Source: an uncultured cyanobacterium
GTDB lineage: Bacteria; Cyanobacteriota; Cyanobacteriia; Cyanobacteriales; CAWCAG01
Reading direction: 5' to 3'
DNA length: 64,000 nucleotides
Assembly (NCBI GenBank): GCA_963793425.1
Contig: CAWCAG010000007.1
Span: 832,001-896,000 of the forward strand
Position numbers and translations under genes: made by a program. The notes beneath the pieces were generated by a model. That model was not told the DNA's origin and made no database searches. It saw only the letters and a program-made list of their open reading frames with translations. Shown in pieces: positions 35,839 through 41,802 of the stretch; positions within the stretch are counted from its first letter, which is position 1; every line of letters starts with the position of its first letter.

Positions 35839-38800
35839 ATGAAAGCCCATACTAATCGTCCGAAAAAGTCCTCTTCTGCTCCTGTCCAAAAGAAATCACA
35901 GCCCCCTGTTGCTACTCCCCCGGTAGTAACAGAAAGGACGACTGAACAGATACAACAGCTTAAAAATATCCCCCCAGAGCCGCCTCCCATAACCCTAGAC
36001 GACTCTTTCGTTCAAACAGGTGGCCATAAGGTAGAAACCATAGTAGAAGAAGAAGAGCGCTTACAAAGAGATTCTACTTTATCAGCAGAAGATAGAGCAG
36101 CATTTACCAATAGAGTACGGAGTTCAATATTAGTAGGGCAGGGAGAAAGTATGGGAATGGAGAGTTCCTATGCCCTTAACCCTGGGCAGAAACCCTTAAT
36201 TCAAGCCCAAGCCATCAACCTTGACACTGTAGCGGGAACAGAAGAACGTAGACAAAACAGTCCTTTTGGGCAACAAATTCATAATTCCCTAATTGCCAGT
36301 CATCAACAGCAGATGAAGCAAGAGTGGCAAACTGCCCCTAACTCCTTTGAGCAACCTTTAGGGCAGAATCTTCAACGGCAACAGGATAGTACGGAAAGCC
36401 AGGAGCAGCCAGCAGAAGCAAAAGAAGAACTTCAGCCAAAATCAATAGTTCAGGAGCCTCGTAAGGAAAACAAATCATCGGCACAGGGAAATAAGATTGC
36501 TATTGAAACTCCTGAACAAGAGATTAAACCCAAAGCAATTAATCAATTAGAAAGCCAGCCTCAAAAAGCACCAAATTCAGAATCAATTGGAGTCCAAGAA
36601 CAAACAAAATCTCAAGGAGAAGCCCGCAATCAAGCAGAAAAACCAGAGAGTGCAGCAACCTCTGATGCAGGCTTTGTGCAACAAGGTGCTTCTGGAGGAA
36701 CTTCTCCTACTTCTGCGGGGGAAGATGCTGGTTTTCAAGGCTTGGTGGGTGATGTCAAAGGGGTAGCAGCCCAAGAAAAACAGCATGAACCAGCGACAGC
36801 AGAAGCCAAAGAAGCTCAAGGTGCTGCTCAATCCCCTAACAATGAAGTAGAAAGTAAAGCTCAAGACTCCCAAGTTGAGCAAATGGAACAGCAGCAGCCA
36901 GGGACTTTCAGTGCAAACGCTTTCAAAGCTGCCCTCTTGGCGAAAATTGATGCTATCATTCCTGATAACGAACAAGATGCAGAAAACTTTGGTCAAAGTA
37001 ACGAATTGGATTCTGTGCGGCAAGATGTTTCTTCTCAGGTGAGTGAAGAAGAAGAAAATGCTGCTGGGCCGATTAAAGAAACCACCGCAGCCCCACCAGA
37101 TACAAGCGGCATTGAACCAAAAACTTCCCAACCTTTACAATCTCCCCCAGCAGGTACACAACCTCAAGGTGTTGATGCCACCAAAGCAGTACCGAAACCA
37201 AAGTCTGAAGCAGAAGTAGCTGCCCCTTTAAATGCCAACTCACAAGAAATAGACCAGGAGATGGCTAATGTTAATATCACCGATGAGCAGCTTGCCAAAT
37301 CCAACGAACCCCAGTTTACAGCAGCACTGGATGCGAAGAATGAACTCAAGACTAATACGCAAGAAGCCCCAGCAGCATATCGCCAGCAAGAGCAGGAAAC
37401 CCTAAATCAGTCCCAAACAGAAGCCCAAACTACCAGCCAAACTCAGCTAGCAGGAATGCACGGAGAGCGTGGACAACTTCTAGGGCAGGTGTTGGGGCAG
37501 CAACAGGCAGTTAAAAGTCAAGATGAGCAGAAACGCTCTGAGGTGGCTACCCATATCAATGGTATTTATACAACCACAAAAACCGATGTTGAGAATATCC
37601 TTAGTGGTATAGATACAGAAGTGACGAGCAAGTTTGACACTGCTGCTGGTGCTGCCAAGGGTAAGTTTGAAAGCCATGTCAAAGAAAAAATGGCAGCTTG
37701 GAAGAAGGAACGTTATGGAGAATGGTACGATGTCACGGGTTGGGATGAGCGCATTAGTGATGCAGTAGTAGGTTTGCCACCGGAGGTAAATCAATTCTTC
37801 GTCGAAGGTAAGCAGCTTTATATCGACGAGATGGATGTGGCTTTGACGGATATTGCCAACTTTGTGGCTCAGAAGCTCAATGAAGCCAAGCAAAGGATTA
37901 GTGAAGGCAAAAACCAAATCAAAGAGTATGTTGCCACTTTGCCTCAATCTTTGCAACAGGTTGGACAACAAGCGGCACAGGATATTCAAAGTCAGTTTGA
38001 GCAGTTAGAACAAAGCGTTGATAGTAAGCAAGATGAGTTGATTGATTCTTTGGCTCAGCGCTACAGTGATAGTATCCAGCAAGTGAATAGCTGCATTCAA
38101 GAAATGCAAGAAGCTAATCGTGGTCTAAAAGATAAAGTTAAAGACGGTATTTTAGGTGTAGCTCAGACTATCGCACAACTCAAAGATATGTTGATGGGGG
38201 TGTTGGGCAAAGCAGCAGGAGCTATTGGCAAAATTATTCTTGATCCCATCAGTTTCCTGGGTAACTTGATCAGTGGTGTTAGCCAGGGCTTCAATAACTT
38301 TACGGGAAATATTACAACCCACTTGCAATCAGGTTTGATTGGTTGGCTTACAGGTGCATTAGGGCCAATGGGTATCACTTTACCTGAAGATATCTTTAGT
38401 TTACCGGGTATCTTCTCCCTTGCTACCCAAGTCCTCGGTTTAACCTGGAACTACATCCGTCGCAAAGCAGTGAAGATGTTCACTGAACCTATAGTAGCAG
38501 GAATGGAGAAGAGTGCAGAAGTGTTCCAAATGCTACGAGATGAAGGGCCAATGGGCTTGTGGGAGAATGTTAAGGAGCAGTTTGGTGACCTTAAAGAGAC
38601 GATCATTGAGCAAATTAAGGGTATGGTGATTACCCAGGTGATTACTGCTGGGGTGAAATGGGTTCTGAGTTTGTTGAATCCCGCTTCAGCTTTTGTGAAA
38701 GCAGCGATGGCAATTTATGACATCATTATGTTTTTCGTCAACCAAGGTTCTCAGGTGATGGCTTTGGTGCAGGCGGTGATTGATGGTGTGAGTGCGGTTG

Positions 38801-39606
38801 CTTCTGGGGCTGTGGGGGCGATGGCCAAGGGTATTGAGAATGCTTTGGTGAGGTCTTTGCCTGTGGTGATTGGTTTCTTGGCTTCTTTGTTAGGTATTGG
38901 TGGGTTGGTGAAGAAGGTTCAGAAGATTATTGGTAAGATTAGGGCGCGGATTGATAAGGCGATTGATAAGGTTTTGAGGAAGGCTAAGAAGGGGTTTAAG
39001 GGAAAGGGTAAGAATAATAAGGATAAAGATAAACCCAATAAAGACAAAGCAGTCGAAACTGGACTTAAGGGTTTACATCTTGAAGAGAAAAAATATCTTA
39101 AAGATAATAAAATTACTAAAGCTGATGCTAAAAAAGCAGCTAATATCACCAAAACTCAACACCCTATTTTCAAATCTATTACTGTTGTCGATGGAGGTAA
39201 AGATTGGGACTACGATTACACCATTCAAAGAACTGAGGATGGGGCAGAAAAAGCAGAAGGATCTAGAAAACATCCGAATCAAACCTGCGAAGATGAAGTA
39301 TTGGAGAGACTTCAAGCTGAAAAAGATGCGATTTGTGGCTCTATACCCAAGTTTCCTAATTGTAAATTGGCTTTGGATAAACTAAAAGCTGGGAAGAAAC
39401 TTAAAGGAAGTGTGAAGGGTGTAACAAGAAAAGATGTTGAAAACCGAATGAATAAAATACAAGAATGTATTGATAAAAGATGGGAAATACAAAACAAATG
39501 CTTTGGTGGAAAGCCAGATAAAGCGCATGAAGATGCTATTCAAGAGCTAGAGAATGGCTTAAGAAACTGCCAAGAATTATTAGATCATCCTGATTTGCCA
39601 ACTTGA
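35839..39606 (+). CDS. Polymorphic toxin, contractile-injection-system (eCIS) effector-like body with a C-terminal Ntox16-like Cys-rich toxin domain
   Basis: Disordered Q/E/P-rich N-terminus with LIQAQ and LQRQ motifs, long coiled coil, hydrophobic helical region, Lys-rich linker, VVDGGKDWDYDY junction, then TC..LERLQAEKDAIC..C..ECIDKRWEIQNKCFGGKPDKAH..NC. Confidence 0.75.
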   Translation: MKAHTNRPKKSSSAPVQKKSQPPVATPPVVTERTTEQIQQLKNIPPEPPPITLDDSFVQTGGHKVETIVEEEERLQRDSTLSAEDRAAFTNRVRSSILVGQGESMGMESSYALNPGQKPLIQAQAINLDTVAGTEERRQNSPFGQQIHNSLIASHQQQMKQEWQTAPNSFEQPLGQNLQRQQDSTESQEQPAEAKEELQPKSIVQEPRKENKSSAQGNKIAIETPEQEIKPKAINQLESQPQKAPNSESIGVQEQTKSQGEARNQAEKPESAATSDAGFVQQGASGGTSPTSAGEDAGFQGLVGDVKGVAAQEKQHEPATAEAKEAQGAAQSPNNEVESKAQDSQVEQMEQQQPGTFSANAFKAALLAKIDAIIPDNEQDAENFGQSNELDSVRQDVSSQVSEEEENAAGPIKETTAAPPDTSGIEPKTSQPLQSPPAGTQPQGVDATKAVPKPKSEAEVAAPLNANSQEIDQEMANVNITDEQLAKSNEPQFTAALDAKNELKTNTQEAPAAYRQQEQETLNQSQTEAQTTSQTQLAGMHGERGQLLGQVLGQQQAVKSQDEQKRSEVATHINGIYTTTKTDVENILSGIDTEVTSKFDTAAGAAKGKFESHVKEKMAAWKKERYGEWYDVTGWDERISDAVVGLPPEVNQFFVEGKQLYIDEMDVALTDIANFVAQKLNEAKQRISEGKNQIKEYVATLPQSLQQVGQQAAQDIQSQFEQLEQSVDSKQDELIDSLAQRYSDSIQQVNSCIQEMQEANRGLKDKVKDGILGVAQTIAQLKDMLMGVLGKAAGAIGKIILDPISFLGNLISGVSQGFNNFTGNITTHLQSGLIGWLTGALGPMGITLPEDIFSLPGIFSLATQVLGLTWNYIRRKAVKMFTEPIVAGMEKSAEVFQMLRDEGPMGLWENVKEQFGDLKETIIEQIKGMVITQVITAGVKWVLSLLNPASAFVKAAMAIYDIIMFFVNQGSQVMALVQAVIDGVSAVASGAVGAMAKGIENALVRSLPVVIGFLASLLGIGGLVKKVQKIIGKIRARIDKAIDKVLRKAKKGFKGKGKNNKDKDKPNKDKAVETGLKGLHLEEKKYLKDNKITKADAKKAANITKTQHPIFKSITVVDGGKDWDYDYTIQRTEDGAEKAEGSRKHPNQTCEDEVLERLQAEKDAICGSIPKFPNCKLALDKLKAGKKLKGSVKGVTRKDVENRMNKIQECIDKRWEIQNKCFGGKPDKAHEDAIQELENGLRNCQELLDHPDLPT

Positions 39607-39619
39607 AACTCCTGTTAAA

Positions 39620-40231
39620 ATGAACAATAAAGATATTTTTGAAATAATTCGAGAACATAATGAAAGTTATCTTTTAAAGATGATTGAACAAGGTATCGAG
39701 ATAAATTCTCATATGCCCAATCCTCCTTTCTGGACTCCTTTACAAGAAGCTATAGATGAAATGGATGATGGAGGAAAAATAGAAATGGTGCAATTATTAA
39801 TTCAGGCTGGAGCTGATGTAAATGCTTGGAATCTAGACCACGATTCTAATCCTTTGCTCATGGCTATGTGGAGCGGCCATGAGGATATAGTAAGTTTACT
39901 ACTCAAGGCAGGAGCTAATCCTAATATTAAAGACAATGAAGGTAATTCTCCTCTTAGATTGAGTGTAGAGGAAGAAAACATAGAAATGGTGAAACTACTC
40001 CTTAGTCATGGAGCGAAAGAAACCATAGATGAAACTGGTGGATTCGGTGGCATGAATGCACTAGGAATTGCGGTAAATAAGCTTAATATTCCTATAATTA
40101 AAATACTTCTTGCTGAAGATGCTGATCCAGAAGCAACTGATAACGATTATCGAAAACCAATAGAAAGACTTCCCAAAAATGTAGATAGTAGTAAAAAAGA
40201 AGAAATTGAGAATTTACTAGCAAGTTATTGA
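39620..40231 (+). CDS. Ankyrin repeat protein, putative cognate immunity protein
   Basis: About 4-5 ankyrin repeats (WTPLQEAI, LLIQAGADVNA, GNSPLRLSV); starts 13 bp after the toxin stop. Confidence 0.85.
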   Translation: MNNKDIFEIIREHNESYLLKMIEQGIEINSHMPNPPFWTPLQEAIDEMDDGGKIEMVQLLIQAGADVNAWNLDHDSNPLLMAMWSGHEDIVSLLLKAGANPNIKDNEGNSPLRLSVEEENIEMVKLLLSHGAKETIDETGGFGGMNALGIAVNKLNIPIIKILLAEDADPEATDNDYRKPIERLPKNVDSSKKEEIENLLASY

Positions 40232-40241
40232 AGGCAGTTAT

Positions 40242-40640
40242 AAGAAACATGATGAAAACCCTGTGTTTTTAAACCAGGGATGAAAGCTGATTGCAGGATT
40301 TATCCTGCCAGGAAATGATATAATTGCTTAAACAGGAACGGTAATTAACCTGTCTAAAAACCCAACTGCCTAGAGGCAATCTGTACCTTGACAACTGAAG
40401 ATATGGGGTTCTATTCCATAGTTCTAGTTCCTACCCAGGAATAGGTAAAATCTTCATGGGATCTAGGCGACGCAGAATTTAAGTAAAATAAATTTTTGGA
40501 GTAATCCAACTACCGAGGGACACTCGGAAAGTTAACGATCGAGGAGAGAACCACCTCTGGATTAGATACCGCAAGGGGTCTAATCCAAGTGGACTCGTTG
40601 AACCGAGAATCTCCGTGGCTAAAGCTATGGAGAGTGTCAA
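40242..40640 (+). mobile_element. Non-autonomous IS200/IS605-family element (tnpA and tnpB absent) retaining both ends
   Basis: Follows TTAT at 40238-40241; left-end hairpin CCCTGTGTTTTTAAACCAGGG (40259-40279); right end GAAT, hairpin CTCCGTGGCTAAAGCTATGGAG (40611-40632), then AGTGTCAA; no target duplication, no terminal inverted repeats, no ORF. Confidence 0.85.
40316..40324 (+). promoter_or_regulatory. Extended -10 promoter inside the element
   Basis: TGATATAAT is a perfect TGnTATAAT. Confidence 0.7.
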
Positions 40641-40660
40641 GAAGACATTAATCTAACCCA
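40509..40660 (+). ncRNA. TnpB omega-RNA (reRNA) scaffold plus flank-derived guide
   Basis: Residual TnpB-like C-terminal codons TTEGHSES* (40509-40535); hairpins CCGAG-GGACA-CTCGG and TGGATTAGA..GCAA..TCTAATCCA; right-end hairpin and terminal TCAA at 40637-40640; predicted guide GAAGACATTAATCTAACCCA. Confidence 0.7.
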
Positions 40661-40686
40661 TGATGGCTAGATATTTCCCATAACCT

Positions 40687-41802
40687 ATGTCCCTCAAAAC
40701 TCAAAGCCAACAAATCAACAAAGCCTTAACCTTATACGAGTCTTCCCAAGGTTCCTACGATTTTCATATTTCCTCCCTCTTTATAACTAAACAAGAAGAG
40801 GAAATTATCGAATGTCGCCTCACTTTACAAATTAGCTTAGAAACTTATCAACATATCAACAGCAACGCCCTATTCAACCTCAAACCAGAAATACGCAATT
40901 CTGCTACTACAAAGTTTCAACCTTCCCCTGAAATCCACCTTGAAGCCTCCCTTAAACCTGATTTATTACAACAACTAGCAAAACAGGTTGCAAATATTGT
41001 AGAAGCTGTCAACTATCTTTTACTTCTAAGCAAAGAACAAACCTACAATCCCTTACTATGCACAGAAAGTTGGCTTGCACTTTCTGTTAAGCAGCAACAA
41101 GAGTCTGGGGAAATAGGCTACCGTACCTTCTGGTCTTATGTTAGCCCTCAAGCCCTTGCCCAAGCAAGTATTTCCGATTCTGGCGAAGAAATTTCTGAGG
41201 CTGTTGTTAACTTTTTTCAAGAGTGGACAGAATCCCACCTATCAGCAGCAACCCAGCAAACCACCTCTCAAATGTTGGATGGCATCACCAACTTTTTCAC
41301 TCAATTAGCGGATACTGCTGTGGATAAGTTTGCTGAAGTTGCCACAGCCAAGAGCAAGATTTTTGAGGAGATGGTAGATTTCTTCAGCCAAGAAGATTGG
41401 CAATTTACTTCAGTAAAAGGACAAACAATTCTACATTTAGCCTGCCAGGGTAAAAATGGGCAATGGGATTGCTTTGCAACTGCTAAAGAAGAACAACAAC
41501 AGTTCGTTTTTTATTCCCTCTGTCCTATTAAAGCACCAAAGAAGAAGCGTAGGCAATTAGGAGAATTTGTTTGTCGAGCCAATTATAGTGCAGTTATCGG
41601 CAACTTTGAATTAGATTTTAATGACGGAGAAATTCGCTACAAAACCAGCATTGATGTCGAAGGGGATTCCCTTAGTTTTTCCCTCATCAAACAAATGGTT
41701 TACGCTAATGTCACTATGATGGATGAATATTTGCCAGGGATTATAGCAGTGATTGAGGGTGAAGCCTCCCTAGAAGAAGCTATTGCTAAAATCGAAACCT
41801 AA
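40687..41802 (+). CDS. YbjN-domain (CesT/type III chaperone-like fold) protein with an N-terminal extension
   Basis: C-terminal FVFYS..P...EFVCRANY..IGNFELDFNDGEIRYKTSID motif. Confidence 0.8.
   Translation: MSLKTQSQQINKALTLYESSQGSYDFHISSLFITKQEEEIIECRLTLQISLETYQHINSNALFNLKPEIRNSATTKFQPSPEIHLEASLKPDLLQQLAKQVANIVEAVNYLLLLSKEQTYNPLLCTESWLALSVKQQQESGEIGYRTFWSYVSPQALAQASISDSGEEISEAVVNFFQEWTESHLSAATQQTTSQMLDGITNFFTQLADTAVDKFAEVATAKSKIFEEMVDFFSQEDWQFTSVKGQTILHLACQGKNGQWDCFATAKEEQQQFVFYSLCPIKAPKKKRRQLGEFVCRANYSAVIGNFELDFNDGEIRYKTSIDVEGDSLSFSLIKQMVYANVTMMDEYLPGIIAVIEGEASLEEAIAKIET

Follow-up and report, generated by a model that had tools for sequence, protein, structure and literature searches.

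Among mobile elements that carry no gene of their own, the closest described systems are the PATEs, the original description of which is said to be that of Dyall-Smith et al. To our knowledge, little is known on how gene-less omega-RNAs compete for TnpB made elsewhere. In the account given by Meers et al. (2023, PMC10055086), PATEs often encode omega-RNAs, which TnpB must use in trans, and elements of the IS200/IS605 group move as top-strand single-stranded DNA; the sections of PMC10278001 drawn on here describe TnpB as cutting the omega-RNA out of its own mRNA.

The window analysed here, a 64,000-nt stretch of a contig from an uncultured cyanobacterium, contains a sequence of 399 nt (40242-40640, + strand) that is recognisable as a gene-less (PATE-like) IS200/IS605-type element. 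An initial annotation had described a structured leader RNA in front of an omega-RNA at this place. In our reading of the sequence, this leader makes up the front half, conserved and pseudoknotted, of one RNA unit of ~310 nt, which is spread through cyanobacteria on elements that carry no tnpB.

Anatomy of the element

The element occupies an intergenic region (40232-40686), with an ankyrin-repeat gene (39620-40231) on its left and a YbjN-like gene (40687-41802) on its right. Both the -10 box and the lack of coding capacity that had been read from the sequence held up on analysis: the hexamer is a perfect TATAAT (40319-40324), and an ORF search found no + strand frame of at least 40 aa within 40232-40686. 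A 13-codon ORF from an ATG at 40404 was rejected, as the ATG is not conserved among copies. From the position of TGnTATAAT the RNA is predicted to start at ~40331, and the predicted unit of ~310 nt (40331-40640) has TCAA (40637-40640) as its end. In alignments of 45 and 48 copies, conservation begins at ~40331 and drops sharply after TCAA, a terminus found in 45/45 rows of the first alignment and 47/48 of the second (the odd row has CCAA). TAnnnT is kept 2-13 nt before the RNA start in 36/45 copies, 20 of those with TGn. A two-hexamer promoter scan found no sites at the element, and TTGACA as an internal -35 was ruled out, there being no -10 at 16-18 nt downstream.

Comparison of copies within single genomes carries the common sequence 90-130 nt further upstream of ~40331, through a shared part made up of a hairpin, then GATGAA, then -35 and -10 elements. 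Same-genome copies diverge upstream of TTAC in 8/8 rows from genome G004, and the boundary lies at TTAT/TTGT in 4/4 rows from G031, 2/4 from G027 (L007, L106) and 3/4 from G002; TTAC also precedes a tnpB-bearing relative (L026), and TTAT a phage copy. The right flank of the window element (GAAG) does not repeat TTAT, so that no target duplication is visible. Subterminal hairpins stand at both ends (the left one at 40259-79, the right one at 40610-15/40628-33, which covaries among copies), and there are no terminal inverted repeats. Nezha-type MITEs, as characterised in the portions of PMC3184786 drawn on here, have terminal inverted repeats, flanking direct repeats and a length of 130-170 bp; with 399 nt, asymmetric ends and no direct repeat visible, the element was rejected as a cyanobacterial MITE of this kind, bounded by terminal inverted repeats.

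Several features of the surroundings are worth recording. The stop codon of the ankyrin-repeat protein (203 aa; PF00023, PF12796) lies ~10 nt before TTAT. The ATG of the YbjN-like gene lies 46 nt past the RNA end, and read-through from the outward-reading promoter could alter its expression; in a genome of the same genus (G001) the YbjN-like gene has no element upstream. On the minus strand, 40381-40364 reads as the complement of P2 followed by GGGTTTTT, an intrinsic-terminator-like site that might keep antisense transcription out of the element; the A-run on the + strand is invariant across copies. The left-end hairpins (40253-40309) also exist in other genomes as a separate dispersed repeat, with at least 10 matches in G007, several of them at contig ends.

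Table 1. Features of the element and of its predicted RNA, in window coordinates
Feature	Position	Strand	Basis or remark
TTAT target / TAM-like motif	40238..40241	+	directly 5′ of the element; within-genome copy comparison
Left end	40242..40330	+	homologous to left ends of tnpB-bearing elements
Left-end hairpin 1	40259-40279 (CCCTG/CAGGG), then GATGAAAG	+	compensatory arm changes among copies
Left-end hairpin 2	40293-40308	+	
Extended -10 (TGnTATAAT)	TG 40316-40317; perfect TATAAT 40319-40324	+	
5′ domain of predicted RNA (core of the "leader")	40331..40460	+	covariation; conservation similar to that of the omega-RNA scaffold
P1, ACAGG/CCTGT	40332-36/40349-53	+	covariation
PKa, probable 5′ pseudoknot (P1 loop with ACCY)	40339-42/40360-63	+	one covarying pair
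P2, TGCC/GGCA	40367-70/40375-78	+	covariation
P3, TGAAGAT/ATCTTCA	40396-402/40450-56	+	covariation
P4, CTATTCC/GGAATAG	40411-17/40438-44	+	covariation
PKb, H-type pseudoknot, pair 1	P4-loop CTAG 40424-27 with CTAG 40463-66	+	covariation
PKb, pair 2	P4-loop CCCA 40434-37 with TGGG 40457-60	+	covariation
Linker	40461..40512	+	pseudoknot 3′ strand, variable stretch, GNRA hairpin P6
P6, GNRA hairpin (loop GUAA)	40496-500/40505-09	+	covariation
Predicted TnpB omega-RNA scaffold / right end	40510..40640	+	matches right ends overlapping real tnpB genes
P5	40513-17/40523-27	+	
Multi-stem core of scaffold	40538-40607	+	
Terminal hairpin	40610-15/40628-33	+	
Guide-equivalent flank (host DNA)	40641..40656	+	G001 homology resumes at 40641; 16-nt length assumed

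Covariation in the 5′ domain

Taken alone, the 185 nt from 40325 to 40509 fold with a minimum free energy of -39.8 kcal/mol (z = -0.48; 70/200 shuffles as stable); for the whole unit 40331-40640, z = -3.42 and 0/100 shuffles are as good. The energy of the 185 nt alone is unremarkable; the question of structure was settled by covariation among relatives. Over the 310-nt unit in 45 copies, RNAalifold predicted 44 pairs, and compensatory changes were seen at 37 of these. Under the supported fold (Table 1), 90.5% of cells in a first set of 37 copies are paired, against 77.7% in shuffles, and double changes occupy 197 cells against 62.5 +/- 8.2, a value that 0/500 shuffles reached, with slid controls at no more than 46%. 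The structure was then fixed in advance for a second set, composed of the window copy and 47 further non-redundant copies from other species (of 51, three at least 97% identical to the first set were dropped, together with one within-set duplicate). Here 91.5% of cells are paired, against 78.7% in shuffles, with 247 double-change cells against 77.2 +/- 8.8, 0/500 shuffles as high and slid controls at no more than 45.5%. The pair count for P1 is lowered because MAFFT places this helix one column off register in 11/37 rows. The covarying pair of PKa reads AU (21 copies) or GC (11 copies) in the first set; for the second set the counts are 20 and 18.

The fold leaves many invariant bases of the 5′ domain unpaired. 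Mean pairwise identity is 0.66-0.70 in the 5′ domain, 0.70-0.71 in the omega-RNA scaffold and 0.55-0.60 in the linker, the least conserved part.

Covariation among homologues, which the initial annotation had named as one check on its proposal, came out positive (0/500 shuffles as high in either set), and its view of the segment as a conserved, structured module acting at the RNA level rather than a product of decay agrees with covariation beyond shuffles in two sequence sets. Its seven helices fared unequally. ACAGG/CCTGT, TGCC/GGCA and TGAAGAT/ATCTTCA are retained; TATGG/CCATA, TTCCT/AGGAA, GGAT/ATCC and CAGAATTTA/TAAATTTTTG are not, these four jointly having 68.5% of cells paired against 67.0% when shuffled, and 26 double-change cells against 15.7. 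A further candidate, in which CTTGACA (40391-97) would pair over a long range with TGTCAAG at the terminus, was discarded: in 10/45 rows an A stands opposite the invariant G, for which C or U would be required, and there is no compensation.

The omega-RNA scaffold and tnpB-bearing relatives

The last ~130 nt of the unit are a predicted TnpB omega-RNA scaffold that abuts host DNA as its guide. Over ~130-145 nt this end matches right ends that overlap real tnpB genes, namely at L060 (TnpB of 389 aa) and L026 (412 aa), both proteins with PF01385 and PF07282, at 9/12 of the loci L128-L139, and at gene gp172 of a Nodularia phage. The guide region is the local flank of each copy. The leader had been taken to be fused to a genuine TnpB omega-RNA scaffold, and right ends common to tnpB-bearing relatives bear this out, with a unit of ~310 nt. 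The 16-nt length of the guide (40641..40656) is assumed from TnpB work, and the ISDra2 structures serve as a further omega-RNA comparison for the right-end scaffold. Rfam at gathering thresholds (4227 models, with RAGATH-18, HEARO, the group I intron, ribozymes and riboswitches among them) gave no match across the whole window, and at E up to 10 only noise-level ones to FtrB (17 of 66 bits), RAGATH-18 (16.5 of 44.9) and GHRLOS; the Rfam search that had been suggested therefore assigns the leader to no family, at the gathering threshold or beyond it.

The left end, too, is shared with tnpB-bearing elements, at 86% over 42 nt with L026 and 78% over 90 nt with L021, which carries a second TnpB type. 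The parent element that had been postulated, a tnpB element with homologous left and right ends, is therefore a kind that exists, L026 and phage gp172 being among the examples; in both of these, tnpB starts ~35-100 nt past the left-end promoter. The tnpB-bearing relatives match the profile only from position ~172-188 on (P5 and beyond), and a search of 35 tnpB loci found no homologue of the 5′ 130 nt (best E 0.8). Because these relatives lack it, 40331-40460 does not qualify as a tnpB leader, the first of the roles once proposed for it. Partial BLAST matches that had looked like a leader on its own upstream of tnpB were in fact full copies that had diverged, or else truncated fragments. Searches by tblastn with two TnpBs inside at least 120 pattern-matched loci yielded no match at E up to 1e-5. 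Given this null result, the missing tnpB-locus homologue and the short gap between promoter and tnpB, the domain is not a tnpB leader, nor is it coding sequence that has decayed; origin as a decayed tnpA or tnpB fragment is contradicted by the covariation as well. On present sequence comparisons, the 5′ domain appears confined to the gene-less family and to move with it.

The linker differs in its apparent origin. Because nhmmer aligned ~40461-40512 to the 3′ coding end of tnpB (ELDRDFNAAIN codons) in L137, L133 and L128, this stretch has the look of sequence that once coded for the 3′ end of tnpB.

The left-end hairpins (40253-40309) also head tnpB elements of two TnpB types (L026, L021), which suggests that one TnpA family serves several element lineages. 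Another gene-less element (L025:1040-1570, - strand; G033:C53) has a left end of the same kind after TTAT and a related omega-RNA end, with a different ~170-nt stretch between promoter and scaffold; the loop of its first hairpin resembles the AAGGTAA..AAC loop of P1.

Distribution and mobility

A BLAST search with 40232-40686 found matches in 36/60 related genomes, most of them covering query positions 100-412 (window 40331-40643). Copy numbers reach 11 in G002, at least 10 in G004, 9 in G027 and 8 in G044, and the multiple copies of G004, G031 and G027 are in places nearly identical. The neighbours of the copies are unrelated housekeeping genes, different in every genome. A motif scan of species-representative genomes returned at least 120 loci; among those listed, 73 were profile-confirmed, of which 53 are full length, and the 47 unconfirmed loci, mostly non-cyanobacterial, are likely to be chance matches. 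At the full-length confirmed loci listed, leader and omega-RNA are always contiguous. Among the matches listed, tnpB lies between leader and omega-RNA at 0/73 confirmed loci, and TnpB-like sequence occurs in the flanks of 1/73. The genera represented include Nostoc, Anabaena, Dolichospermum, Nodularia, Calothrix, Planktothrix, Microcoleus, Lyngbya, Microcystis, Crocosphaera, Pseudanabaena and Spirulina, among others. Retention of the leader after loss of tnpB, as had been supposed, is not a local event, since the gene-less unit is itself a mobile family and no confirmed locus listed has tnpB inside it.

The element is also found on plasmids and in phages. Four plasmid records match, three of them over most or much of the element and one, from Oscillatoria, over the left end only. 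Five Nodularia phage records (vB_NspS-kac65v151 and four related records) have a full-length copy at 80.6% identity. In vB_NspS-kac65v151 (MK605242.1) the gene-less element (L264) lies at 119688-119993, after TTAT. The product of gp172 (L266, 114506-115690) in this phage is a TnpB 58% identical to that of L026, with its own omega-RNA right end; 4.3 kb separate it from the gene-less element, and an intein-containing ribonucleotide reductase gene lies between them.

By a profile built from 32 copies, the genome that holds the window has two copies, that in the window and a diverged one (G000:C7:790523-790853, - strand; L116:1024-1354; profile E 1e-61) just downstream of a tRNA gene. The second copy retains the helices, its left-end hairpin looks truncated or degenerate, and BLAST aligns the two copies at 76% over 97 nt. 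None of the 20 tnpB places in this genome matches the profile (0/20).

The same-genus genome G001 is without the element at both loci. At the window locus its homology resumes exactly at 40641, with TTTAC just before it, giving an exact right junction; the left flank is not syntenic. At the locus of the second copy the intergenic DNA has diverged, and a clean empty site, syntenic on both sides, was found in G001 for neither copy. Synteny of 35839-40241 with L117 (G001:C2) breaks exactly at the element. The upstream flank in G001 maps to another contig of the window's own genome (C9:826534-827924, 91% identity), and the ankyrin gene and a 1255-aa ORF upstream of the element are absent at the G001 locus.

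Partner proteins and expression

A cognate TnpB clade was defined as ~50% or more identity to the TnpB of L026, at E up to 1e-100. So defined, the clade is found in 40/60 relatives and is numerous, with homologous right ends, in the copy-rich genomes G002, G004 and G027. It occurs in 14/16 relatives with a strong element match and in 26/44 of the others, a modest excess given an arbitrary threshold and genomes that are not independent. The window's own genome yielded no cognate TnpB (best 43% identity), so its copy is probably an orphan. Nor was one found in G031 (best 38%) or G044 (no match to the L026 TnpB, only mostly short PF07282 hits), both of which hold copies, and dependence on a cognate TnpB may not hold in every genome. 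Y1 TnpA is represented in the own genome by 6 matches to PF01797, of which 4 are strong.

RNA-library contigs from relatives (4 libraries, 4 studies), 85-99% alike, fall on 40341-40627. Two of them span the junction of leader and scaffold, and one of the contigs has an adapter abutting 40341; uncovered parts of 40100-40800, which takes in both flanks, carry no information, as the contigs come from relatives. For expression of the element as RNA this is weak evidence, because contigs give no strand information and may stem from carried-over DNA.

Proposed mechanism and alternative explanations

The observations as a whole are probably best explained by a PATE-like derivative of a tnpB-only IS200/IS605 element, in which the 5′ domain fronts an omega-RNA used in trans. 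TnpA made elsewhere would move the element as single-stranded DNA, and the element promoter would make the ~310-nt RNA plus guide. TnpB of the cognate clade, supplied by other elements, would load this RNA in trans and cut emptied TTAY-plus-guide sites, and recombination would then restore the element. This scheme of transposition and re-cutting presumes that details of ISDra2 and IS608 carry over to the element. The 5′ domain would probably make up for the absent tnpB mRNA context through 5′-end protection, RNA folding or TnpB capture; stabilising or loading the trans-acting guide RNA is the role that we favour for it, by inference. We suggest tentatively, as one possibility, that the domain is an accessory module of the gene-less lineage, which would promote guide-RNA survival and capture of foreign TnpB, or recruit a further factor.

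The 5′ domain could instead be an independent RNA module riding on the element, either self-cleaving or processing, or regulatory and protein-binding, with TnpB, TnpA or host targets. Its complex fold, in which two pseudoknots occur beside a GNRA loop and numerous invariant bases stay unpaired, would suit such a module, as would conservation equal to that of the scaffold and the persistence of copies in genomes without a cognate TnpB; the depth of RNA-library contigs on the domain is at least that on the scaffold, but this figure sums organisms. We nevertheless regard an independent module as rather unlikely: no Rfam ribozyme or riboswitch matches at E up to 10, the domain without omega-RNA was seen only as truncated fragments, contigs bridge domain and scaffold, and the order of the helices, H-type and lacking hairpins between the strands, is at odds with an HDV-like topology. 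The ribozyme or second scaffold that the initial annotation had floated is shown by nothing in the analysis. It is more doubtful still that the conserved structure does its work not in RNA but in the single-stranded DNA intermediate of transposition, as a TnpA accessory site or in strand handling. GNRA tetraloops and H-type pseudoknots are motifs typical of RNA, TnpA is known to require subterminal hairpins only, and the domain is missing from tnpB-bearing relatives that share the ends of the element. The supported helices do lie on the top strand, the one that IS200/IS605 elements move according to the account in PMC10055086, G-T wobbles are tolerated in DNA too, and G-U asymmetry cannot tell RNA structure from top-strand single-stranded DNA structure; however, conservation begins at the start predicted from the -10 (a box kept in 36/45 copies), and the DNA between the left-end hairpins and the -10 diverges.

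Two further explanations deny the domain either function or mobility. We give next to no credence to the leader as a functionless remnant of tnpB or tnpA after local deletion: the stretch 40461-40512 aligns with the tnpB 3′ coding end in relatives, but against a remnant stand 197 and 247 compensatory cells in the two sets, conservation of the unit across dozens of genera, the null tblastn result in at least 120 loci (E up to 1e-5) and the lack of a homologue of the 5′ 130 nt in 35 tnpB loci. A domesticated host ncRNA gene, vertically inherited and immobile, would account for two own copies that are old and diverged (76% over 97 nt), the second with a degenerate left end, in a genome where no cognate TnpB was found. 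It is highly improbable, given absence from G001 at both loci, neighbours that differ in every genome, multiple nearly identical copies in some genomes, occurrence on plasmids and phages, and a guide region that is merely the local flank.

Implications and comparison with known systems

With this family it becomes testable whether a trans-acting omega-RNA is more stable, better loaded or more active when it carries an extra RNA domain, and the answer bears on how guide RNAs gain independence from nuclease genes en route to CRISPR-like systems. Compact TnpB editors could also gain from such a domain a stabilising module of natural origin. For annotation, the unit represents an unrecorded structured RNA family in cyanobacterial intergenic regions, with an outward-reading promoter. 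Were the accessory-module reading true, this would be hyperparasitism at the RNA level, with a composite guide-RNA architecture of ~310 nt spreading via cyanobacteria, plasmids and phages independently of any gene.

The class of element is already known; for the conserved 5′ domain, no description was found in Rfam or in the literature searched, a limited collection that included portions of PMC3610870, PMC8136920 and 10.64898/2026.02.14.705889. Group I introns need a terminal G. IStrons, which combine an IS605 or IS607 element with a group I intron and an omega-RNA (10.1101/2023.11.20.567912, as far as drawn on here), likewise combine a guide RNA with a sizeable structured RNA in one small transposon, whereas the present element has no group I intron match (Rfam, E up to 10), a seemingly internal promoter and a terminal A. 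RAGATH-18 guide RNAs of IS607 TnpBs (RF03064; described in the part of PMC11061315 used here) resemble 40538-40609 weakly, though over the full length of the model, with a similar GGAG...GAAC...GAA layout; at 16.5 bits against a gathering threshold of 44.9 (E = 3.8) the scaffold is not a member, and the element is of the IS200/IS605 rather than the IS607 type. With the omega-RNA, reRNA or sotRNA of tnpB-only (IS1341-type) elements, in the accounts excerpted from PMC8612924 and PMC4615843, the unit shares the right-end scaffold, an end at the element boundary and a guide taken from the flank; in those RNAs the 5′ part lies inside the tnpB ORF, going by the portions of PMC10278001 consulted, whereas here a non-coding structured domain takes its place. 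The likeness to PATE-like elements extends furthest, to the lack of an ORF, ends shared with tnpB elements, a short target motif on the 5′ side and a right-end guide-RNA scaffold needing TnpB in trans (PMC10055086). To PATEs as described in the passages of that source used here, the present family adds a conserved, pseudoknotted 5′ domain of 130 nt with what appears to be its own promoter.
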